The position numbers and the translations under genes were made by a program. Below are positions 11,129 to 36,225 of a DNA stretch of 36,225 bases, in pieces. Origin of the DNA: a virus; the IMG/VR virus record IMGVR_UViG_3300040801_002332, positions 1 through 36,225 of that record, one strand, 5' to 3'. The notes beneath the pieces were generated by a model, which searched no databases, was not told the DNA's origin, and was given only the letters and a program-made list of their open reading frames with translations. The first letter of the stretch is position 1. The number at the start of each line of letters is the position of its first letter.

Positions 11129-11541
11129 TGTATGCTCCACTTCTCATAAATTTTACATTCGAAACTGATGCTAGTTTTAGCTACCGAATCAGTGTTTAAC
11201 CACTCATATGCAGTCCTGGTTGGCATTATCTTGGATGTCCCAAACAACTTAGATAAATCCATGTTGAGCCTCACCAGGTTACGCATCATCTCACACCTAG
11301 CCAGATACTCCCCGTCCTGAGCATCGCCGAAACAATGCAGTGTGAAAACCAGTGTTACGTCGTACCGATGAAAATGATCAGTGATTTCCGTGGTGCTAGG
11401 CACACTGTTGTACTCCTCTACCTCAAGCACAATAGCTACGTCTGTAAGGCCTGTCATCGCATCCTGCAACACCTGCTCCTCGTTCTCATACAGCGTGACC
11501 CCAGGAATCGATCTAACTCGTGTTATGATGGTATTAATCAT
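11125..11541 (-). CDS. Head-tail connector / tail terminator-like protein (138 aa)
   Basis: Positional assignment between the head-completion and major tail genes. The ATG at 11541 forms an ATGA overlap. The track start at 11559 is a GTG. Confidence 0.45.
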   Translation of the reverse strand: MINTIITRVRSIPGVTLYENEEQVLQDAMTGLTDVAIVLEVEEYNSVPSTTEITDHFHRYDVTLVFTLHCFGDAQDGEYLARCEMMRNLVRLNMDLSKLFGTSKIMPTRTAYEWLNTDSVAKTSISFECKIYEKWSIQ

Positions 11542-17418: not shown

Positions 17419-17830
17419 CAGAACCCTTATGAGTCGCTAGGGACTTATCGTCCCCGCTTATAGATTGTAACTCTGTAGCATTATGTTTTGCGCCTGAACC
17501 AAGCACAAAAAATAGTGTTACAGTGCGCTGAAACCACTATATTTCATCGATATTCACGGCCAGAAAAACCAGCCCCTTGGGAAGGCCCATTCTACCTGGT
17601 TTTGTAACTAGTTTTTCAACTGCAAAATTTTTACGAGAAACGGACCCAAGAGTTATGTCAGGGTCCCCTCCTGCGTAAGAATCATTAAACCTATCAAATA
17701 GCCTAATCTGAGCACTCTATGAACATAACCCATATCAGCATATATCCTCACGTCTAATCCTCTAGAATCGTCTCTCTCGCTCATATATACCGTGACGCAA
17801 TCAAACACAAACTCAGTATAACGAACGAGT

Positions 17831-17860
17831 ATAAAAGAACCCGCCTGTTACAGCGGGTCC
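17831..17860 (-). terminator. Intrinsic terminator after the lyase-like gene
   Basis: The minus strand reads GGACCCGC-TGTAACAG-GCGGGTTC, an 8-bp stem with one G.U pair. It is followed by TTTTAT and begins 8 nt after the stop at 17868. Confidence 0.7.
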
Positions 17861-17867
17861 TAATCAT

Positions 17868-18779
17868 TTATTGTGGAGTCAACATAAGATTGTATTTGTT
17901 AACCTCAGGGCAACCCACCACTTTCACGTTAAACGCGGCATCACTATCCTCACGCCAATAGCTAACACCTACCTCACACTGGTCTGGCTCAGGAGTAGGA
18001 GTAGGATCAACAGGCATAGGAGGAGGCGTTACATCCTCCATGCTGTCACCTATCCTAACCTCATCTGCATACACCACAACATTACCGTTAGGTGGTTGAT
18101 ATAACCCAACCTTGAAATACGGTTGTGATACATCACACGCATTAGGCCCATCCTTCTCGGCAAACAGCTCGCCGTCCTTCCATATCTTCAGTCGTCCATC
18201 ACTACCAGATGACGCCTTATAGTATACAACCCAATCAGTCCATTTCCCTACATGATCAGCAATAGGACCCCTCTTCACAACAGCATTTTCGCCTTGCCAA
18301 TTGTTATAGAATCCCCAATCGTCCTTGCTAGCATTGAATACTAACAGCGGAGTTGCGCCAGATGTGCAGCTTTCACCCCCGTGTATTTGTGCCAAAAACA
18401 TCTTCTTATCTGTGAATGCAGGGTCCCAACCTTCTGGGATATAAACACTCCATCCTATATAACTACCAACTCCAGGCTCGATGATACCTCTGGTTGTCGC
18501 GATCTCAGACCGCCATTGCTCACCCACACTAGTACACGCTAGAGGTTTTCTGTCGCCTGGCCGTAATTCAAACCTGGCCATACTATCACCAGATCGTGGC
18601 TTAGGTGCCCCTGACTCACCTTCTGTTACTGTTCTGAGGGAGTGTGATTCACAATTCTGTAACCTCCACTCATCTGATACTCCAGACTCGAAACCGTCAT
18701 AGAATGACACGTCCGCATAGGCCGACGTGCCAGCTAGGGCACCTAGAATACCTGCCGCCAGAGTTGTACGCTTTCTCAT
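17868..18779 (-). CDS. Secreted polysaccharide-lyase-like protein (concanavalin-type jelly roll) with Sec signal peptide
   Basis: Signal peptide MRKRTTLAAGILGALAGTSAYA/DV. The core pattern (RSE...GWSVYIPEGW...AQIHGG...GKWTDWVVYYKAS..DGRLKIWKDGEL...PYFKVGLYQ) matches the heparinase-I/PL-type 'Polysacc_lyase' fold as I recall it. A Pro-rich linker (PPPMPVDPTPTPEP) and a small 2-Cys C-terminal domain follow. Confidence 0.65.
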   Translation of the reverse strand: MRKRTTLAAGILGALAGTSAYADVSFYDGFESGVSDEWRLQNCESHSLRTVTEGESGAPKPRSGDSMARFELRPGDRKPLACTSVGEQWRSEIATTRGIIEPGVGSYIGWSVYIPEGWDPAFTDKKMFLAQIHGGESCTSGATPLLVFNASKDDWGFYNNWQGENAVVKRGPIADHVGKWTDWVVYYKASSGSDGRLKIWKDGELFAEKDGPNACDVSQPYFKVGLYQPPNGNVVVYADEVRIGDSMEDVTPPPMPVDPTPTPEPDQCEVGVSYWREDSDAAFNVKVVGCPEVNKYNLMLTPQ

Positions 18780-19762: not shown

Positions 19763-20161
19763 TCATCTCGCGGCTCCCTTCACTTTCTCGATAGTTCGTA
19801 ACCCGCTTATGCCTAAAATTGCTATCACTAACTCGAACGCAGCATCTATAGGAACCTCAACTGGCTCCAGCCCAAACCATACCGCCATAGGGTTAACTAT
19901 AAACGCGAACGCTAATGCGGCAGCGCCTACATAACCTACTGTGGGCCGGAAACCAGCTACATACGCTGATCTATGTTCCGCCTGTAGTTTATTGAGCTCA
20001 TGCTGTAATTCTTGAGGACGTTGCCTAAGCTTATCCACTGCTAATTGTAGCGCTGCTTTCTCTTCTTTGCTTGTGTGAACATCGTCAATGATTCTGCCGA
20101 TGCTATCAATTACTTTACTTGCTGATCCGCCTAGCACGGAACCTAATATATTATCTATCAT
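19763..20161 (-). CDS. Holin, GTA-type '3TM holin' family-like
   Basis: The N-terminal amphipathic region with ...IIDDVHTSKEEK..., then AEHRSAYVAGFRP and hydrophobic segments, resembles the family of holins described for gene-transfer-agent release. Confidence 0.6.
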   Translation of the reverse strand: MIDNILGSVLGGSASKVIDSIGRIIDDVHTSKEEKAALQLAVDKLRQRPQELQHELNKLQAEHRSAYVAGFRPTVGYVGAAALAFAFIVNPMAVWFGLEPVEVPIDAAFELVIAILGISGLRTIEKVKGAAR

Positions 20162-20350
20162 GTTAACCCCTTATATATTGGTGAGCGTGTGTAAACACGC
20201 GAAACTGAATTAGTAATACCACTAAATGCTCTGCCTAGTCTGTATAATCAATTATAGTGTTTTTGCAGTGTTATCTAGTTGTATTACTGATGCAGTCTCT
20301 TATAGTGCATGTGGTAATCTCCTACAGCTCACTCGCTGTTGCTCGTTCGC

Positions 20351-20371
20351 TATAAGCTATAAGCTATAAGC
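20351..20371. repeat. Perfect tandem heptad array TATAAGC x3
   Basis: Read directly: tataagc tataagc tataagc. Confidence 0.95.
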
Positions 20372-20373
20372 TA

Positions 20374-20420
20374 GTAACAAGTAACAAGTAACAAGTAACA
20401 AGTAACAAGTAACAAGTAAC
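20374..20420. repeat. Perfect tandem heptad array GTAACAA x6.7
   Basis: Read directly: six full gtaacaa units plus gtaac. It is separated by only 2 nt from the first heptad array. Confidence 0.95.
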
Positions 20421-20482
20421 TACTCACTTATCGGCTTGCGCGGCTGCGCCGCTCAGCCTTAACTGCATAGCGCTTAGCTCTC

Positions 20483-20502
20483 ATCCCCCCTAGATCCCCC
20501 CT
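20483..20502. repeat. Paired ATCCCCCCT motifs (G6 tracts on the minus strand), 11-bp spacing
   Basis: atcccccct ag atcccccct, read directly. Confidence 0.9.
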
Positions 20503-20530
20503 TCTCTCACTACTACTACGTAGCTTAACA

Positions 20531-20650
20531 CCTTTTTTTTCCTTGTCAATAGCATCTGTTTATTTTTTGTACGATTTTAGCTAAATTATTTTTTTATTTC
20601 GTTCTTTATCATACAGTTAGTGATGTATTTAATTTTCTTATGAATTACCG
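20531..20650. other. Strongly AT-rich block (candidate DNA unwinding element)
   Basis: Contains the runs tttttttt, tatttttt, attattttttt and aattttc. It holds one degenerate iteron-like copy (tgtatttaattttc at 20624..20637). Confidence 0.6.
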
Positions 20651-20764
20651 TGTTTCACCCTCTATTGATCAGTTTTGCTGATAAGTCTGTTGCTTTTTTG
20701 TACAATCGCTCATTCCGCCAACCTGTTTTTTATGCTGATTTCACAGTCGTCCCTGACCGTAGTA

Positions 20765-20845
20765 TGTATCATTTTAACGCAATCGTGTATTATTTTAACG
20801 CAAACATGTATCATTTTAACGCGAATGTATTAGATTGATAACGTA
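20765..20845. repeat. Direct 17-nt iterons TGTAT(C/T)ATTTTAACGC(A/G) x3 plus one degenerate copy, 21-bp phasing
   Basis: Copies start at 20765, 20786 and 20807 (21-bp spacing). A degenerate copy starts at 20826. The array lies just downstream of the polymerase stop. Confidence 0.9.
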
Positions 20846-20887
20846 ACACAAAAAGCCTGTCTACGATTCTCTGCTCATTTCATACCT

Positions 20888-22753
20888 TTAGAATTTAAGA
20901 AAATGTTTACTTATGGTTCCTTCACAATCCAGCGGTAAACCTTCAACATAAGAAGGCACTATACGCATTATTTCCATCAACTGTTCTAATGTCTCCTCTG
21001 CTAAATGCTCGGCTACGCTTATTGTCACCTCATCGTAGACGTGCATAACTACTCTACCAGCCATGTCACCGCGTTTAATCCTGCGTTCGACTTCTATCAT
21101 TTGATTCATTACGATGTCACGCGCTAGCGCCTGAATGATACGCTGAAACACCTTAGAACCGTGTACGTATTTTATGGGGTCACCCCAGTAGTATTCAGCT
21201 TTCCTTGCACCTCGCCTGGCCCCTAGACCCGGATAATAGAGGCTCCTACCCGACGGTAATATGATCTCCTCCTTCTTGAATTTCAGGTTGCGCCATCCTG
21301 GATTTCGCTCCCCTGTCACCAGCCACCGTAACGCTGTGTCCATAAATGCCCATGACTCAGTGTATTTTGGGTGAGCCGTATCGAACGTTTTAACCATCCC
21401 CCTCACGTTTTCGATGGGCAGAAATACGCGATCGCCGTTAGTCAAGGACCCGCTTTTCAGCGTTTTGTCGAACGTTTTTGATCTCATACCGTACTGAAGG
21501 CCAAGCTGAGACGCCTTCCCTAACATACGCTCGTAGCTGTCTGCTTTAGTTATCTCGCGCCCGAAAATCTTAGACGCTAGTGCACAATACGTATCCCCGC
21601 CATTCTTATACAGCTCTGTAAACTCTTTATCATCAACAAGATAGGCTGCAAGCCTAGCCTCGATGCCAGCGCTATCCGCTATGACTAATGTCTCGCCATC
21701 TGGTGCAACTATACTTTCCCTAACGCCTCCTTTGCGGGGCAGGTTAGACATGTTTACGCCATTTGAGCCACCAGTCCTGCCCGTGTGCGCAGCGTGGTAA
21801 ACATAGAATATAGGCACCTTGCCGTTGTGACAAGCTACTGACTTTTCTAGTTTGTTTAACCTCGAACCAATTATGCTGGATTGTGACGCAAAACGAGCGT
21901 CTAGTATCGCTCTTACCTGCTCATTGCCGTTTGCTTGATCCAGCAGCTCATTGTCAGTTTTGCTCAAAACGTATTTCAACTCACCGTTTTTGTTGGGTTT
22001 TTGTTTTAGTTTGGCCCCTGCTTTTGTGAGCAAATCAACTGTGAAATCATTTTTCCTCAGTTGCTCAGGCGTGACACCAATAGCAGCACAAAGCTCATCA
22101 CGGCGTTTAAACTCATCCTCTTTGGCTTTGTTTGCCTGCTCTTTATCGAACTCTAAATGAGGATTAAATGCCATTTTTAGCGTGTGATGCATTAGGTAAG
22201 CCTCTTTTTCAGGCATCAGAGGGCGCATCTTCTTATGTATGAACCGCAGTATCTCTGTGTCATTAACACCATACACTTTCAGTGATTCCCGCTCTTCCTC
22301 ATTCAGATCCTCCAGTCTTTTATTGTACGTTTTCGTCAACCCAACCGACAATTCCTCTTTCGCCGGTCCTTTGTAGCCTAGCATAGTCCCTAGGGCGTTT
22401 AGACTACCGGGCATAGCAGGTAGCACGTAGTTAGAAATGGCTTTAGTACACTCATAGCGCGGGAACTGTATCCCTTCCTGCCACGCCAGGATAGCGCCGT
22501 CAAAGTACATGTTATGCGCTACCCCAATGCAATCATGAGCCACGCTACGTATAAAGTCTAGCCCTTTCTCGATTTCATCACCGAAACACCACTGTACCGG
22601 CCCATCATCGAGCGCGTAACTAAGCCCCATATAAGCGAACTTATCGCTATTCACATATTGACTGTAATTCAAGCATGTTAAACTATAGCCTGTTGAAAAC
22701 GCCGTTTCACAGTCCAGGTATAGCGTGTGCTGTGGTTTGTTCATTACTGCCAT
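20888..22753 (-). CDS. Family A DNA polymerase with 3'-5' exonuclease domain
   Basis: Exo motifs: LYLDCETAF, HNMYFDGAIL and YGVNDTEIL. Pol motif A is IADSAGIEARL, motif B is RMLGKASQLGLQYG and motif C is HVYDEV. Confidence 0.9.
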   Translation of the reverse strand: MAVMNKPQHTLYLDCETAFSTGYSLTCLNYSQYVNSDKFAYMGLSYALDDGPVQWCFGDEIEKGLDFIRSVAHDCIGVAHNMYFDGAILAWQEGIQFPRYECTKAISNYVLPAMPGSLNALGTMLGYKGPAKEELSVGLTKTYNKRLEDLNEEERESLKVYGVNDTEILRFIHKKMRPLMPEKEAYLMHHTLKMAFNPHLEFDKEQANKAKEDEFKRRDELCAAIGVTPEQLRKNDFTVDLLTKAGAKLKQKPNKNGELKYVLSKTDNELLDQANGNEQVRAILDARFASQSSIIGSRLNKLEKSVACHNGKVPIFYVYHAAHTGRTGGSNGVNMSNLPRKGGVRESIVAPDGETLVIADSAGIEARLAAYLVDDKEFTELYKNGGDTYCALASKIFGREITKADSYERMLGKASQLGLQYGMRSKTFDKTLKSGSLTNGDRVFLPIENVRGMVKTFDTAHPKYTESWAFMDTALRWLVTGERNPGWRNLKFKKEEIILPSGRSLYYPGLGARRGARKAEYYWGDPIKYVHGSKVFQRIIQALARDIVMNQMIEVERRIKRGDMAGRVVMHVYDEVTISVAEHLAEETLEQLMEIMRIVPSYVEGLPLDCEGTISKHFLKF

Positions 22754-25337: not shown

Positions 25338-27446
25338 CTAATTTGCTTTATATAGTGTTTTTTTACCCTCTTTGATTTCTTGAATAGAACTGCACTCTAT
25401 TAGTTCATTCAGATAATCAATACGGCTATTCCTAGTCAACCACTTGCTGTTGCGTATAAGCGATGCTTTGCTGATTCCGCTATCGCCGCTGCTACGTATG
25501 ATGGACAATAACCCGTTCTTATCTCGCTCTGTGTTGTTGTCAGCTACATTCTCAGAAACATCTACCAGCAGAGACTCATCGCAGTGGAGGGCTAGCATAC
25601 ACGACCACCGTGCGTGAGCCTCTGTGATTACCGGCTTGTCATGCTCATCTGCAATAGCTGCTATCGTAGCAATTCGCATGGCCTTCTCTACTGTTCTATT
25701 TAGAACATTTGCTAGTTTCTCGCCCGCCTTATCTTGCAGTCGTATAACATGATCCTCTAGTTTACTGAAAACGTTTTGAGCCTCAGTACTCACGCTAACA
25801 GGTACCATTGAGGGACGCTGTTTATAGTCGTCAAATGCAGGTTTGTGTCTAGGTTCCCCTCTTCTTATGTAGAGTAGCGTGTCAGCTAGATGTTGGCTCA
25901 TAGGACGCCATTTTCCTGGTATGCGTTTTTGCCTCCCCTCTTTACTGCGATACACTAGCAATCTGCTAACAAAACCATCTGTTAGTGAACCGCTGCTCAG
26001 AGCGTCATAAAACGCACTTGTAGTTGTCGCACCTAACATAGATACGCCAGGATTGTAGACTGTGAACATGTCGGGTGATAACCCTGCGGTATCCTCCCCT
26101 TTGGTTTCTTTTTTCCGAAATTCACTCACCAGGCTGTAACTCATAGGAGTGTAGCTAGAGACACCTTTACTAAACAATTCCATCAGCGTCGTGAGTGCCT
26201 CAGTCTTGTTTACGTTGCTTCCAGCCGTCGATAGATGCCTACCTAGTTCATCGATTAGCGCTATATGAGCGGGCTGGTATAACAGCTCACTGAGCACCGC
26301 GCCAGCAGATTGATAGCCACCACAATACACGCGGCCTAAACCAGCATCGTCAACAGCGTTTTTCACCGTAGTTATCGCGCTTTCTTTACCGCAACCACTC
26401 TCCCCCAGCACCACGAAAAACATATCTGTGGTGTTACGCTCACTGCTCACGTAGCGTCGAGCAGAGCACACGCTGAACACGGCGAGGGCGCTGATTAACG
26501 CGAAACCAGGCTGATGTTTAGCCTGAATAGATAAGAAATAGTCGTATAACTCTTTTACGCCGCCGGGAATAGCGTTTATAACTTGGCTGAAACTGATGGT
26601 TTCGCCTAGTTTGCTCACCTGTGCTTCTTCTTGCGGTTCCGGTATCTCTACTCGTCCACGCCAACCATTCTCGCGTGCCCAGAAATACAGAGTGTCTGCT
26701 GTCACACCTCCAGAGTTGAATGAGTTCCAGTGTTTTGCGCACACATCAGCACCGCCGTAATTTCTGGCCGTAGCTGACCACGTATCCCATTCATCGAAAA
26801 GACCTGCATCTTTGCAGATCATCCCCGCTTTCACCCACACATCATAATTGCTAGCATCAACATGTTGCAACGCGTCTACAATATCGAGTTTTTCGTTCGC
26901 AGTGTAGCACACGCCGCCATCGACGGCTGCGCTCTCAGATTTTTCTACTCGTTGGATGAGCCAAATAGGCGCTTCTTCTGCCGCATCACCGCATATTACA
27001 TCGTACTCGCCTTTTTCGGTGACTGAGCCTGGCCCAACTACGAAACCACCATCGCCGCGTATATCAACGCCAGCAGCCAGCGATCCTGCGCTGTTAGGGA
27101 TATGACCTGCTATGTCAACAGGATAACTATAATAATAGTGAAATCCGCCGCTTGCTGTTTTGATTGTTAGTGTGTCAGGCGAGTAATCGTTTTCTCTACA
27201 TAGGTCATCCCACGAGTCTACGCCACCGGCCCCATCTTTGACATCAACATCGACAACAAAAATACCACTACGTCTCCCTGTTGCTATGCCGTAACCTGTT
27301 GATCCTACGCCACTAAACAGCGAACGCATCTCCTCTATATCACTAGTTGCCTCTGTTGTCCATCTGCATGCTGGCTCTTTCCCCCCTGGTATCAGTGGGA
27401 ACATATCAAAACCGGCATGAGAAAATGCCTGAATGTATTTTTTCAT
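25338..27446 (-). CDS. Bifunctional primase-polymerase (Prim-Pol) / P-loop helicase
   Basis: N-terminal Prim-Pol motifs (GFDMFPLIPGGKEP, FVVDVDVKDG, GGFHYYY, DIRGDGGFVVGPGS). A PriCT-like segment follows (VWVKAGM...WDTWS...KHWNSF). The C-terminal part carries Walker A (GESGCGKES) and Walker B (LIDELG). Confidence 0.85.
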   Translation of the reverse strand: MKKYIQAFSHAGFDMFPLIPGGKEPACRWTTEATSDIEEMRSLFSGVGSTGYGIATGRRSGIFVVDVDVKDGAGGVDSWDDLCRENDYSPDTLTIKTASGGFHYYYSYPVDIAGHIPNSAGSLAAGVDIRGDGGFVVGPGSVTEKGEYDVICGDAAEEAPIWLIQRVEKSESAAVDGGVCYTANEKLDIVDALQHVDASNYDVWVKAGMICKDAGLFDEWDTWSATARNYGGADVCAKHWNSFNSGGVTADTLYFWARENGWRGRVEIPEPQEEAQVSKLGETISFSQVINAIPGGVKELYDYFLSIQAKHQPGFALISALAVFSVCSARRYVSSERNTTDMFFVVLGESGCGKESAITTVKNAVDDAGLGRVYCGGYQSAGAVLSELLYQPAHIALIDELGRHLSTAGSNVNKTEALTTLMELFSKGVSSYTPMSYSLVSEFRKKETKGEDTAGLSPDMFTVYNPGVSMLGATTTSAFYDALSSGSLTDGFVSRLLVYRSKEGRQKRIPGKWRPMSQHLADTLLYIRRGEPRHKPAFDDYKQRPSMVPVSVSTEAQNVFSKLEDHVIRLQDKAGEKLANVLNRTVEKAMRIATIAAIADEHDKPVITEAHARWSCMLALHCDESLLVDVSENVADNNTERDKNGLLSIIRSSGDSGISKASLIRNSKWLTRNSRIDYLNELIECSSIQEIKEGKKTLYKAN

Positions 27447-31037: not shown

Positions 31038-31214
31038 CTAATTAGTTAGTGTCATCTGGAAAACATCATCGTATCCGATACTCGCATTTACTCTACGAGC
31101 ATTCTCTGCTCGCAATCTAATAGCATCGATAGCGTCCATATAATCGTCTCGAACTCTAGTGATCCGCTTTTTGCCCTCGTTGTTAGCATCAACATAATAA
31201 AAATTATCAATCAT
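31038..31214 (-). CDS. Candidate ribbon-helix-helix DNA-binding protein (58 aa), not in the ORF track
   Basis: ATG at 31214 with GAGGA upstream. The protein is MIDNFYYVDANNEGKKRITRVRDDYMDAIDAIRLRAENARRVNASIGYDDVFQMTLTN*. The KKRITRVR strand followed by two helices mirrors CopG/omega-type RHH layout. Confidence 0.45.
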   Translation of the reverse strand: MIDNFYYVDANNEGKKRITRVRDDYMDAIDAIRLRAENARRVNASIGYDDVFQMTLTN

Positions 31215-33083: not shown

Positions 33084-33531
33084 CGTAGAATCCTTGAATC
33101 AGTGTAGTGTAGTCTGTGTACTCGTTTACTTCTTTGCTGTCATGGTTTAAATGATACATCGCTGCATTCTCATTGTCAATGATTTTCTGCTGTAATTCCA
33201 CCCATTTTTTAGGCTCTGCTCTGATAGCGTCCAACATAGCCTGGATACGTGCCGCGTTGCGCTTGCGTACTTTCGCTTGAATCTCAGTGATGCTAGGCGC
33301 TTTGTACATCGCTTTGATACGGTCAGCAGTGTATTTAGCGCTGACAGGGGCCATTTCAGCCGCTCCTAGGTCACTCTTACTGCCGGTACCCTTCTTGTAA
33401 TACTCGGCTTGTTTGGCCGCGTTGGCTCGTTTAATGGCATTTACTTTGGCTCTTTGCTCATACGTATAATCATAATCAACTAGCTGGGATTTGCGTGCCA
33501 TAATTGCTTGATTTTCTCTTGTCGCTCTCAT
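33058..33531 (-). CDS. First early gene product (157 aa), basic helical, unknown function
   Basis: ATG at 33531 preceded by AGGAG, about 40 nt downstream of the early promoter. Confidence 0.6.
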   Translation of the reverse strand: MRATRENQAIMARKSQLVDYDYTYEQRAKVNAIKRANAAKQAEYYKKGTGSKSDLGAAEMAPVSAKYTADRIKAMYKAPSITEIQAKVRKRNAARIQAMLDAIRAEPKKWVELQQKIIDNENAAMYHLNHDSKEVNEYTDYTTLIQGFYDEHFNDNS

Positions 33532-33576
33532 TTTTAGTGCTCCTGGTTGTTTGTGTGTACTGCTCTGACAATTCGA

Positions 33577-33605
33577 ATACTACTCCACCAGTCTATCGTT
33601 GTCAA
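33577..33605 (-). promoter_or_regulatory. Early leftward sigma70 promoter
   Basis: The minus strand reads TTGACA-N17-TAGTAT, about 45 nt upstream of the first early ATG. Confidence 0.75.
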
Positions 33606-33776
33606 CAGTTATTCTAAATTTATTTCATTAAATTCCTGCGCCACTGTTGTACGCTATCCACTCCTTATATATATACGCGCGAGTAGCGCAGCGAACGAGC
33701 CGAGGAAGACAATGGGAAGCAATAAAGCTATATCACATTAGTTATGTGCTTATTCCGTATTGATATAAATAAAAGC

Positions 33777-33805
33777 TTGACTTTTGCTGAAAAATATGCT
33801 ACCCT
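33777..33805 (+). promoter_or_regulatory. Rightward sigma70-like promoter P1 (no ORF downstream for ~320 nt)
   Basis: aaaagcTTGACT-N17-TACCCT, with an A-rich upstream element. Confidence 0.5.
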
Positions 33806-33867
33806 TAAAGACACAATCACAAGCAACAGCACAAACAACATCAACGGCAACAGCTACTAGCTGATCT

Positions 33868-33981
33868 TAACTATAAAGAATAAATTACTTCAGATAACTA
33901 TAAAACATAAGAAGTAAGCAATAAGTAAAGCTGTAAGCGCTCTCGCTTTCAGCGATCGCTTAAGATAACTATAAAGCATAA
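33868..33981 (+). repeat. Three dispersed TAACTATAAA(g/a)(a/c)ATAA boxes in the non-coding stretch
   Basis: Copies at 33868..33883, 33895..33910 and 33966..33981. Between them lie TAAG-rich sequence and the 10-bp palindrome AGCGATCGCT (33951..33960). Confidence 0.85.
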
Positions 33982-34061
33982 GAATAAGCTCTCTCTCCTA
34001 TATGCTCCTTGAGCAAAGCTATTGCCTGAGAAAAGTAGCGTAAAATTAGTCCAAAAAAAGC

Positions 34062-34090
34062 TTGCATTCTGAATAAGACAGGTGTATCTT
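34062..34090 (+). promoter_or_regulatory. Rightward sigma70-like promoter P2 for the plus-strand cassette
   Basis: aaaaagcTTGCAT-N17-TATCTT, 36 nt upstream of the lipoprotein ATG. It shares the AAAAGCTTG context with P1. Confidence 0.6.
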
Positions 34091-34125
34091 AGAACCATCA
34101 ACTCAACAAACAAAGGAACACGGAA

Positions 34126-34556: not shown

Positions 34557-35027
34557 TTACGTATATTTCACTCTAGCAAAATGCATCCAGTCGTAATTTT
34601 TAGCTCTACCGAGACTAGCGAAATTATGCAATTCCATTATATCGAGGAACATTTCATACTCAGGCTGAGCAAACAATGCCCGCTCCCTACCCCAGCTCAG
34701 GCGATTACCTAACGGGTGAATATCGATAGCTGAACCAAAAGCATGGCTAGACCATTTCGTCCCTCCTCGTATCCTCCTCACGTTTGTCGTTCCACCAAAT
34801 AAATCCAATCCCAGCTCCATAATACGATCCCTACCGTACGCGAGCCAGATACCATCTAGGGCGTTCTGTAAATCCTCAGATGCTAGCTCATGGCATTTGA
34901 TGCGCGACACCTGAACCTCTGGTTTCCACGCTAGCCTCAGCGGGTATCTAGGGTATATAAATGTTTGTCGCGTGCCTGGCATGCCGTAATACGCGATCTG
35001 ATCTTTGTCGGTGTTATACGGTAACAT
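34557..35027 (-). CDS. Endolysin, M15/LAS-family zinc peptidase
   Basis: SSHAFGSAIDIHP (H-x6-D) and DWMHF motifs. 156 aa, and the last gene of the leftward programme. Confidence 0.75.
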   Translation of the reverse strand: MLPYNTDKDQIAYYGMPGTRQTFIYPRYPLRLAWKPEVQVSRIKCHELASEDLQNALDGIWLAYGRDRIMELGLDLFGGTTNVRRIRGGTKWSSHAFGSAIDIHPLGNRLSWGRERALFAQPEYEMFLDIMELHNFASLGRAKNYDWMHFARVKYT

Positions 35028-35035
35028 ATATCCCC

Positions 35036-35824
35036 CTAGATAGATTCAATCAGTAGCCTACAGGACTGAGCCCGTGTATCAATGGGGAGACCCCAATCGT
35101 AGATTTCGCACTCCACATCTACAACATCATTAGCTGCTAGATTCGCTATAATAGTCGCCGTCATTGTGTCAGCACCTCTATCTGCTGTCCTATGATAGCC
35201 ATACATTTTAGTCCCTGGGATTTCCGTGCTGTTTTTTCGTATATAACAGAGTGATGCCGTACGGCTAGTGCCCTCTACCATGTCAATTGTGACCTCTGCC
35301 GTGATTTTATAATAGCCTGCATTAGCTATTGTCACAGCGCCACCAACGTTAGTAAAACCGGGGTCTGAGTACACCACGGTATCGAAATCTAACACGATAG
35401 GCGCGTCTATCTCAATAACCTGAGTACCGCTGTTGTACGCGCAATGCCTGATAATAGGGGAGCTAGAACCTGCTGGTCCCACTGGTCCCTGAATGCCTTG
35501 AGGACCCACGTCTCCTGTATCCCCTTTCGGCCCAGTTGGCCCGATGTCGCCTTGAGGACCTGCCGGACCTATTGGTCCTTGATCACCTTGAATTCCCTGT
35601 ATACCTTGAGGCCCCGTGTCCCCTTGTGGTCCCTGCGGCCCCGTGTCCCCTTGTGGTCCCTGCGGCCCCTGTGGACCTGTATCGCCTTGGGGACCTTGCG
35701 GGCCTTGAATACCCTGCGGACCTGGCTGTCCCTCTGGCCCTGTTGGTCCCATAGGCCCTTGAGGACCTGCAGACCCACTAACCGATAACGCTAGTGGTTT
35801 TTTATTAGTAATAAACAGTTTCAT
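35036..35824 (-). CDS. Collagen-like fibre protein with C1q/TNF-like globular C-terminal domain
   Basis: 35 uninterrupted Gly-X-Y triplets (aa 17-121). The 140-aa C-terminal domain has a C1q-like pattern ([14 protein letters not shown]...[17 protein letters not shown]...LCYIRKN...[16 protein letters not shown]). Confidence 0.75.
35610..35663. repeat. Perfect 27-bp tandem duplication inside the collagen-like region
   Basis: ggccccgtgtccccttgtggtccctgc occurs twice back to back, duplicating three Gly-X-Y triplets. Confidence 0.9.
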
Positions 35825-36183
35825 CGTGTAACCCCCTGAAATACAGTGATTTTGCCTTCTAGAATCCTATCAACACTCTCGTCCTTGACAAGCAGAAGAT
35901 CATATACATGCCTGCCTGGTTCCAGCAAATCAGTCTGATCTGCCGTTATAGTTACAGCTATGGTCCCCTCAGCACCTCCTAGGGTTATCCCATTAGCATC
36001 ATCCAGTTCTAATTCAGCATCAGGAGCGTCTATGGTTTTTCTGATGTGCATTAATGTAGTATACGAGGCCAGGTCTAGCGGCGTCTCCTCGTCGGATTCA
36101 AACATCGCAATTTCAAGAACGAAAGTTCCGCCTCTGTTGATCTCTAGGTCTAATAATTGTGTATTGCGTCTCAGTGTCGCCAT
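35821..36183 (-). CDS. Beta-sandwich (Ig-like) protein, possible fibre adaptor (120 aa)
   Basis: The pattern RGGTF.L.I........PLDL......M.IR.......ELE........G.I.V.I.A..T..L.....VYDLLL......RILEGKI.V resembles Ig-like N-domains of phage fibre/baseplate proteins. ATGA-coupled to the collagen-like gene. Confidence 0.45.
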   Translation of the reverse strand: MATLRRNTQLLDLEINRGGTFVLEIAMFESDEETPLDLASYTTLMHIRKTIDAPDAELELDDANGITLGGAEGTIAVTITADQTDLLEPGRHVYDLLLVKDESVDRILEGKITVFQGVTR

Positions 36184-36225
36184 TAGTCACCTCTGTGAAG
36201 GGGAGGCTCCTCTACGGGGCCTCCT
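36109..36225. repeat. Terminal direct repeat, copy 2 (identical to 1..117)
   Basis: Same 117-nt string as 1..117. This implies a circular or concatemeric template with a 36,108-bp unit length. Confidence 0.95.

Follow-up and report, generated by a model that had tools for sequence, protein, structure and literature searches.

Two abutting perfect heptad arrays in the largest gap of a siphovirus genome: a probable compound microsatellite rather than an omega-type operator

Why should a phage genome with a coding fraction of 93% carry two perfect arrays of different 7-bp units placed directly against one another, and do these arrays serve as a binding site or are they a product of replication slippage? 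A previous sequence-only reading of the window (the whole stretch of 36,225 nucleotides analysed here) had proposed that they may be the control element of the early-to-late switch, bound cooperatively by a ribbon-helix-helix (RHH) regulator in the manner of omega of plasmid pSM19035, with a slipped-strand copy-number switch or a CA-rich plus-strand RNA as alternatives. The arrays are real, perfect, and unique in the genome, and their units recur elsewhere without a consistent context. It seems to us probable, if only just, that they represent a compound heptanucleotide microsatellite generated by slippage and acting at most as a variable spacer. Some role in cooperative protein binding, be it at an origin, an operator, or a packaging site, is unlikely overall.

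The window corresponds to a complete phage genome that was assembled as a circle. Its first 117 bases recur exactly at its end, and because these terminal bases are duplicated, the true length is 36,108 bp. Nearly all genes are carried on the minus strand, and family searches (PHROG/Pfam) identify a siphovirus with a lambda-like tail (tube protein, tape measure, and gpJ-type tip), recognisable portal and small terminase genes, and a large terminase of the gpA type (GpA_ATPase, E = 7e-56; GpA_nuclease, E = 5e-47). The replication module encodes a Prim-Pol/PriCT_2/DUF3987 primase-helicase, which is a fused protein of the self-loading type (gene at 25338-27446), together with an AAA_24 ATPase, a Cas4-like nuclease, and a family-A DNA polymerase. 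The arrays lie in the largest gap of the genome (Table 1), which comes directly after the last gene of this module and is bordered by the stop codon of the DNA polymerase gene (20888) and the start of a holin gene (20161). Downstream of the gap is a four-gene unit encoding the holin, a 108-aa protein, a 191-aa protein, and a secreted polysaccharide lyase. This unit is closed by a strong intrinsic terminator at 17861..17836, and the terminase and structural genes start beyond a separate 449-bp gap. Gene annotation therefore bears out the placement of the arrays at the border between the replication module and the lysis, packaging, and structural genes. Their description as lying upstream of the late genes holds for the four-gene holin and lyase cassette but not for the structural operon as a direct neighbour, since the terminator and the 449-bp gap stand between. 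Neither known RNA families nor tRNA or tmRNA genes were found in the genome. Along the minus strand, the gap contains, in order, a set of 21-bp repeats, an AT-rich block, a candidate promoter, a GC-rich island, the two arrays, and a long hairpin, followed by a small hairpin and then the ribosome-binding site of the holin gene.

Table 1. Features of the gap between the DNA polymerase and holin genes (positions in the window)
Feature	Position	Strand	Basis
Largest gap in the genome, 726 bp, non-coding	20162..20887		Gap list; PHROG/Pfam annotation of neighbours
Imperfect hairpin, 99 nt, 27-nt arms, apex TATAAT-CA-ATTATA	20201..20299	minus	Inverted repeat and fold
Array 1, GCTATAA (= TATAAGC) x3.6, head to tail, 100% matches	20349..20373		Tandem Repeats Finder, period 7
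Array 2, AGTAACA (= GTAACAA; TTGTTAC on the gene strand) x6.9, 100% matches	20373..20420		Tandem Repeats Finder, score 96
AT-rich block, least stable 200 bp of duplex genome-wide	20506..20705		Nearest-neighbour scan: -236.1 kcal/mol vs mean -274.6, sd 10
Candidate sigma-70 promoter facing the arrays	20522..20549	minus	By eye
Three imperfect 21-bp direct repeats, TGTATCATTTTAACGCAAnnn	20765..20827		Period 21, 2.8 copies; 86% identity to the reference copy

Tandem Repeats Finder and the sequence itself agree with the units and coordinates first reported for the arrays, which in that register read as TATAAGC x3 at 20351-20371, the dinucleotide TA, and GTAACAA x6.7 at 20374-20420. The two arrays abut and have base 20373 in common. 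Chance can be excluded as their source, as the longest perfect period-7 run in the genome is 48 bp, compared to a mean of 14.4 bp and a maximum of 18 bp in 200 genome shuffles, and no other perfect repeat with a unit of 2-12 bp and at least three copies is present anywhere in the genome. All copies are direct, identical, and in one orientation, the edges of the arrays are sharp, and no degenerate heptad copies were found in the flanks. Over the two strands, GTAACAA as a single unit has five extra matches in the genome. Two-unit sites with up to three mismatches are not above chance, either for GTAACAA outside its array (5 observed, 4.2 expected) or for TATAAGC elsewhere in the genome (3 observed, 5.3 expected). 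The arrays are non-coding, with a plus-strand TAA inside each GTAACAA unit and no minus-strand ORF of 20 aa or more across them. The two units differ from each other at three of seven positions, and therefore neither is a simple point-mutant derivative of the other. The heptads also contrast with the other repeats of this genome: the 21-bp repeats of the gap and a 16-mer, TAACTATAAAGAATAA, which is present three times in the early gap at 88-94% identity beside strong promoter-like sites, are imperfect and spaced, whereas the heptads are perfect and contiguous. Possible links of TATAAGC to the CTATAA core of this 16-mer, and of AGTAACA to AGCAACA-like runs in the early gap, were considered and rejected as not above chance.

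The proposal that a small repressor or activator of the phage, with an RHH or other fold, coats the heptads cooperatively and thereby controls the early-to-late switch draws on a well-defined system. The omega protein of pSM19035 recognises runs of 7-10 WATCACW heptads, contiguous but mixed in orientation, at six sites on the plasmid that overlap promoters, has a ParA partner, and needs four contiguous heptads for full activity and cooperative binding (PMC9499535). The phage arrays resemble these sites in being composed of contiguous 7-bp units without spacers. Array 2 exceeds four contiguous heptads (array 1 falls just below), the arrays are found at the boundary of early and late genes, and the nearby TATAAT, which has no -35 element, would suit an activator-dependent promoter. 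However, the phage units mismatch WATCACW in every rotation and on both strands, with neither ATCAC nor GTGAT present in the arrays. Their copies are direct and identical rather than mixed in orientation, and they form a single site in the genome, as opposed to six in pSM19035. This site is 95-165 bp from the TATAAT and does not overlap a promoter. Neither an RHH protein nor a ParA partner, nor any other recognisable small DNA-binding protein, was detected among the ORFs scanned (Pfam, PHROGs), although this negative carries little weight, because most small ORFs are orphans with no family matches and a divergent RHH protein could be among them. The 58-aa product of 31038-31214, which had been suggested as a candidate, is modelled as one long helix rather than as the beta-alpha-alpha arrangement, although a model from a single sequence with a pLDDT of 74 is weak evidence.

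The TATAAT itself is present on the minus strand (20256..20251) as half of the palindrome TATAAT-CA-ATTATA (20243-20256), and the observation that it has no usable -35 also stands, since the hexamer 17 bp upstream matches TTGACA at two of six positions by eye and the promoter scan lists no promoter there. Its interpretation as a promoter does not hold up, as the hexamer is the apex of the long hairpin, which folds at -36.1 kcal/mol compared to -17.8 +/- 3.1 kcal/mol for shuffled sequences (z = -5.95). On the gene strand, this hairpin follows the arrays at a distance of 50 bp, just ahead of the holin ribosome-binding site. A place at the hairpin apex accounts for both the mirror image and the absent -35 better than promoter function would. 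As judged from their units and arrangement, the arrays fail to qualify as members of the omega/RHH heptad family, and the sequence-only reading is not upheld on this point: the consensus is mismatched, no RHH or ParA family match was obtained among the ORFs scanned, and the genome offers no second site. An analogy in function is conceivable but finds no positive support. An operator of this type is, in our view, highly improbable. If the more ordinary interpretation of the locus is true, its value is mostly cautionary, in that an omega-type reading of perfect, contiguous heptads between phage genes calls for support from a matching protein, from secondary sites, or from conservation.

The occurrence of the same heptads in other genomes provides the evidence for that more ordinary interpretation. 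An exact scan of IMG/VR for GTAACAA x4 returned six stretches, representing five independent contigs. A composition-matched control heptad, GATACAA x4, returned four stretches, also upstream of genes or intergenic, and TATAAGC x3.3 returned three. As viral contigs contain the control heptad at about the same frequency, GTAACAA does not appear to be special. The idea that GTAACAA is a particular motif for a universal factor was likewise discarded, as neither the contexts nor the orientations of its arrays are consistent. In the viral contigs, GTAACAA arrays are found after a primase gene, between superoxide dismutase and dCMP deaminase genes, upstream of a terminase operon, and beside an integrase-like ORF, and no protein is common to this phage and the viral contigs with heptad arrays. 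Two of these contigs were considered as distant relatives and rejected, the first (L001) since its polymerase similarity is weak and local, and the second (L004) since its ORF is unrelated to the small terminase subunit of the phage; neither shares proteins with it. As a rough extrapolation, approximately 1,170 strand-collapsed heptad classes with 3-6 contigs each would correspond to one array per several hundred viral contigs. The description of such repeats as unusual in a compact phage genome is thus correct in part: they are rare per contig, but they are also recurrent, with three to six IMG/VR stretches for each of the three heptads tested, and they belong to a repeat class that has already been described.

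The same unit also recurs in bacteria. At least 120 loci with GTAACAA x4 were found in species-representative bacterial genomes from many phyla, and the matches listed include 42 cyanobacterial loci, of which one Symploca genome contributes 15 and one Pleurocapsa genome 8. Among the matches listed, 24 of 130 GTAACAA arrays (18%) are accompanied within 15 bp by a perfect array, three copies or longer, of another heptad, and some of these pair units as dissimilar as TATAAGC and GTAACAA. With this proportion of compound arrays, two abutting arrays are a normal form for the class, and compound heptad arrays can be regarded as a normal form of a widespread class of prokaryotic microsatellite. The copy-number distribution of the 130 arrays among the matches listed decays steeply (62 arrays with four copies, 26 with five, 19 with six, and 7 with seven). 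The genes that flank the listed bacterial arrays are arranged in tandem in 44 cases, convergently in 24, and divergently in 7, and the orientation of the array relative to the downstream gene is split 36:22 among these matches. These loci were also considered as a possible prophage or host link, which was rejected, as no homologue of any phage protein was found among the matches listed. The tetranucleotide correlation of the phage with the pooled bacterial loci is low and non-discriminating, with a maximum of 0.54 on 8 kb.

Taken as patterns of sequence, the recurrence of the units, their compound form, and their inconsistent context are the signature of a mutational class and not of a conserved site. 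The phage arrays consist of perfect head-to-tail copies of a non-triplet unit at a non-coding site, and GTAACAA arrays recur in unrelated genomes, where neither their neighbours nor their orientation are conserved. Among bacterial simple sequence repeats (SSRs), heptamers are over-represented; they occupy intergenic positions, differ in length between closely related strains, and have been ascribed to slippage of the polymerase (PMC4692102). Among known heptamers, the same paper points to cyanobacterial short tandem repeats and to GGGAATC / GGGGAYT of Xanthomonas and Nostoc (PMC4692102, citing Mrazek et al. 2007 and Mazel et al. 1990). The phage arrays are like these prokaryotic heptanucleotide SSRs in their 7-bp unit, perfect or nearly perfect head-to-tail copies, intergenic position, and often compound form, but those of PMC4692102 are G-rich quadruplex formers, whereas the phage units are A/T-rich, and arrays of this kind are rare in phage genomes. 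The locus is thus a further instance, in an orphan phage, of a kind of heptamer repeat that has already been described.

A plausible sequence of events can be proposed for a microsatellite at this position. As the sequence-only reading had recognised, the arrays are of the type that slipped-strand mispairing makes and changes. The repeat may have been born and kept homogeneous through such mispairing at replication, in which case the array would be young. The arrays would be tolerated inside the largest gap, with no role as a sequence-specific operator, because in a genome that is 93% coding the gap is one of the few places where a non-triplet unit is harmless. The length of the arrays would be expected to rise and fall by 7-bp units and is probably polymorphic. 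Any effect would be exerted through length, at 7 bp and approximately 240 degrees of helical rotation per unit, with the arrays acting as a spacer between the AT-rich and promoter-like block upstream and the hairpin and holin start downstream. If the region is transcribed, the leader would be longer by 7 nt for each unit. We infer, then, that the arrays arose by slippage, that their copy number is unstable, and that no protein binds them specifically. A microsatellite would also make the locus convenient as a copy-number marker for following the phage population.

Some observations run counter to a microsatellite. Two viral contigs from two samples (L005 and L006), which are the only pair with both flanks in common, have an equal array copy number. 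The 6.9 copies of array 2 put it in the longer tail of the distribution among the matches listed, and above the minimum of four heptads in a row on which omega and similar cooperative binders depend. The mismatch between the units of the two arrays at three of seven positions is a further point of this kind.

A gain or loss of 7 bp could, in principle, have been recruited as a length-dependent switch, in which altered spacing or helical phase varies the expression of the holin and lyase genes within the phage population. Perfect arrays of a non-triplet unit are a substrate for switching, each unit would shift the helical phase by about the same 240 degrees, and the arrays fall between the candidate promoter and the hairpin and holin start. 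This promoter, recognised by eye, consists of TTGACA (20549..20544), a 16-nt spacer, and TGt-TAAGCT (20530..20522), and it is missing from the consensus scan because its -10 matches at just three of six positions. The arrays share with the contingency loci and phase-variable SSRs of pathogens a perfect, slippage-prone, non-triplet repeat upstream of a gene. However, in contingency loci the repeat is within an ORF or between the -35 and -10 elements, and the phage arrays are in neither position. The equal copy number of the one viral pair with common flanks also speaks against switching, and, to our knowledge, phase-variable promoters of this kind have not been described for the late genes of lytic phages, which we likewise count against it. 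A switch of this type therefore seems improbable.

Packaging provides a different rationale for repeats at this position. The Nu1 protein of lambda recognises R sites next to cosN, and by analogy the small terminase subunit of the phage might bind the heptads as a cosB-like recognition site beside a cleavage site in the GC-rich island (20425-20510). This island abuts the arrays amid otherwise AT-rich DNA and contains a short hairpin and two G6 runs. The large terminase is of the gpA type, which implies cohesive ends, and the unrelated contig L004 has a GTAACAA array approximately 200 bp upstream of its terminase operon. Several features are difficult to reconcile with this arrangement. The gene for the small subunit is 2.7 kb and four genes away, behind the strong terminator, and it has the 449-bp gap upstream of it, which is the canonical cos position. 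The candidate small subunit of L004 has no similarity to that of the phage, the IHF consensus is absent from the gap, and the circular assembly is silent on the ends of the genome. We consider it very unlikely that the arrays have a role in packaging. In T7, arrays of 7-bp repeats reportedly flank the terminal repeat, which provides a parallel, in a lytic phage, for heptamers arrayed outside coding DNA. Those of T7 are spaced, imperfect copies next to the concatemer junction, in a phage that has direct terminal repeats, whereas those described here are perfect, in a phage with a gpA-type (cos) terminase.

The repeats might also act as RNA, with UUGUUAC and GCUUAUA in the holin mRNA leader, or a CA-rich RNA from the plus strand, serving as a protein-binding or sponge platform. 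There is no intrinsic terminator between the DNA polymerase and holin genes, and therefore the minus-strand repeats are probably transcribed; the heptads are unpaired in the centroid fold. On the other hand, no Rfam match was obtained at the gathering threshold, the best within 20100-20950 having E = 0.59 and falling off the arrays. The orientation of such arrays relative to the downstream gene is inconsistent elsewhere (the 36:22 split among the matches listed), and the units do not appear to contain known bacterial RNA-binding motifs. The plus-strand RNA raised by the sequence-only reading fares no better, with neither an Rfam match nor a convincing plus-strand promoter ahead of the arrays. 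We give a function in RNA the slimmest chance of the roles considered here.

Relatives of the locus were sought in several collections. The gap has no match by megablast or blastn in 50,697 phage records, scans of IMG/VR seeded with the DNA polymerase and holin proteins returned no related contig, and neither did a scan of the metagenome collection with the DNA polymerase. A pattern of flanks plus a variable gap, used in the metagenome collection for copy-number variants, had no match, and look-ups of exact proteins returned no record. The DNA polymerase and holin form singleton clusters, on two contigs, with next homologues that are 31% and 33% identical, and the nearest relatives of the DNA polymerase (P0002 and P0003) have another gene order and no comparable gap. 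To judge from these comparisons, the phage is without close relatives among the sequences searched and its siphovirus lineage is an orphan.

In such a lineage, the arrays could be a cooperative platform for a phage protein that is unrelated to omega and unrecognised, with the gap serving as a combined origin and late-control region. This is a minor possibility, unlikely on present analysis yet worth stating, as, if true, it would add a new initiator or regulator and the site it recognises to an orphan phage lineage, and show where the origin or the late switch lies. The C-terminus of the primase-helicase, the small terminase subunit, and the orphan small proteins are candidates for the platform protein. 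The arrays are placed where one would look for an origin or control region, with the least stable DNA of the genome no more than approximately 100 bp off and other repeats crowded into the gap; this, too, counts against a microsatellite.

The more specific form of this idea is that the heptads are origin iterons, bound by an initiator such as the C-terminal part of the primase-helicase beside an AT-rich region of unwinding. The origin of P4 (alpha with ori and crr) is a short-iteron origin of a self-loading primase-helicase, and a fused primase-helicase of self-loading type is encoded here as well. The arrays are in the largest gap, directly after the last gene of the replication module. Approximately 90 bp away is the AT-rich block (20506-20705), where the duplex is at its least stable genome-wide over 100-200 bp, with a pair of 21-mers at 20555-20575 and 20686-20706, and the gap further contains the three 21-bp repeats and the long inverted repeat. 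The origins of SaPIs have 6-12 penta- or hexanucleotide iterons, which are found to either side of an AT-rich region and in opposite orientations (PMC9371898). The phage is like the SaPI Rep/ori system (PMC9371898) in having short repeats near an AT-rich region in a genome with a fused primase-helicase. However, the phage heptads are single-sided, on the holin side and in one orientation, and the repeats on the other side of the AT-rich block are the unrelated 21-bp ones. An origin of the SaPI type is immediately downstream of the rep/helicase ORF, whereas the primase-helicase gene of the phage is 4.5 kb off and the gap follows the DNA polymerase gene instead. The motif scan found no DnaA box and no IHF, Ogr-type, CII-type, or T4-late motif in the gap. 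The cumulative GC skew declines steadily through the gap without a change of direction, in a genome coded almost on a single strand, and the units are perfect, generic, and arrayed in unrelated genomes too. A role for the heptads as iterons therefore seems improbable, and the imperfect 21-bp repeats, which start 60 bp past the DNA polymerase stop, are better candidates.

Within the gap, we find the hairpin, the 21-bp repeats, and the AT-rich block more convincing as functional elements than the heptads, and they provide a better entry to the question of the origin and the late switch. As a probe of IMG/VR, the core of the 21-bp repeat gave 0 matches.

The 726-bp gap between the DNA polymerase stop and the holin start (20162-20887), which holds the heptad arrays, also contains several other elements. 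Near the holin gene lies a 99-nt hairpin with 27-nt arms, for which folding gave -36.1 kcal/mol, as compared with -17.8 +/- 3.1 for shuffles (z = -5.95). Its apex is the palindrome TATAAT-CA-ATTATA, half of which is the perfect minus-strand TATAAT (20256..20251) that the sequence-only reading had flagged as having no usable -35. Judged from sequence and folding, this hairpin might serve as a site of RNase III-type processing or as an attenuator, or it might form a cruciform.

Features located in the polymerase-holin gap and elsewhere in the phage genome
Feature	Position	Strand	Detail	Basis
99-nt imperfect hairpin and small GC hairpin	20188-20299		directly upstream of holin ribosome-binding site	inverted-repeat search, folding
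GC-rich island	20425-20510		amid AT-rich DNA	sequence
Least stable 200-bp duplex of genome	20506-20705		~3.9 sd below mean	stability scan
Three imperfect 21-bp direct repeats, TGTATCATTTTAACGCAAnnn	20765-20827		86% identity to reference copy	
449-bp gap	17419-17867		upstream of small terminase gene	
Strong intrinsic terminator, 10 pairs	17861..17836	minus	ends holin-to-lyase cassette	
Early control gap	33532-34125			
Collagen-like (Gly-X-Y) tail-fibre gene	35036-35824			

Toward the polymerase gene, the GC-rich island holds a short hairpin, GCGGC-TGC-GCCGC, as well as the run CCCCCCTAGATCCCCCC, in which the gene strand has two G6 runs; the island was considered as a cos cleavage candidate, but without support. 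The least stable block of the genome contains a pair of 21-mers (20555-20575 and 20686-20706) spaced 131 bp apart, and it may be an element for unwinding or a cluster of promoters. The trio of 21-bp direct repeats lies 60 bp past the polymerase stop, and the repeats look like iterons; in the promoter scan every copy also scores weakly as a promoter-like site. The core of the repeat yielded 0 matches as a probe against IMG/VR.

The GTAACAA array recurs in bacterial genomes, where it is scattered over at least 15 loci in Symploca sp. SIO2E6 and found at 8 loci in Pleurocapsa sp. CCALA 161 among the matches listed. In these two strains, the arrays make up a dispersed family of heptamer repeats, of the kind already described from cyanobacteria. 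An array is also present in several marine Alteromonadales, again among the matches listed. An unrelated, temperate-looking IMG/VR contig (L005) has an array at 11272-11313, flanked on one side by a pair of repressor-like ORFs and on the other by an integrase-like ORF, and ~110 bp downstream of the array are three inverted, degenerate copies (GTGTTACTTGTTACCTGTTAC) that could be arm-type sites or the product of chance.

The nearest relatives of the DNA polymerase share 31% identity and are encoded on 30- and 57-kb contigs (L134 and L135), the gene order of which otherwise differs from that of the phage studied here. In both contigs, a CsrA-family protein is encoded directly after the polymerase gene (L134, 8493-8672; L135, 9797-9970).

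The 16-mer TAACTATAAAGAATAA occurs three times in the early control gap, twice as part of 26-mers that lie 71 bp apart, and the gap also has a CA-rich AGCAAC-like run. Strong promoter-like sites are located at 33605..33577 within this gap and at 33179..33151 just outside it. The 16-mer has a CTATAA core in common with the TATAAGC heptad, a match that is probably due to chance.

In phages that have a gpA-type terminase, the canonical position of cos corresponds to the gap preceding the small terminase gene, and here this gap is free of repeats. The adjoining holin cassette encodes a polysaccharide lyase whose N-terminus resembles a signal peptide (17868-18779), and the endolysin (Peptidase_M15_4; 34557-35027) is encoded ~15 kb from the lyase gene, at the opposite end of the late region. 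Positions 1-117 are identical to 36109-36225, and this exact 117-bp terminal overlap shows the contig to be complete and circularly assembled, with a length of 36,108 bp. Near one end of the contig, the tail-fibre gene contains a perfect 27-bp repeat in 2.2 copies (35610-35669).
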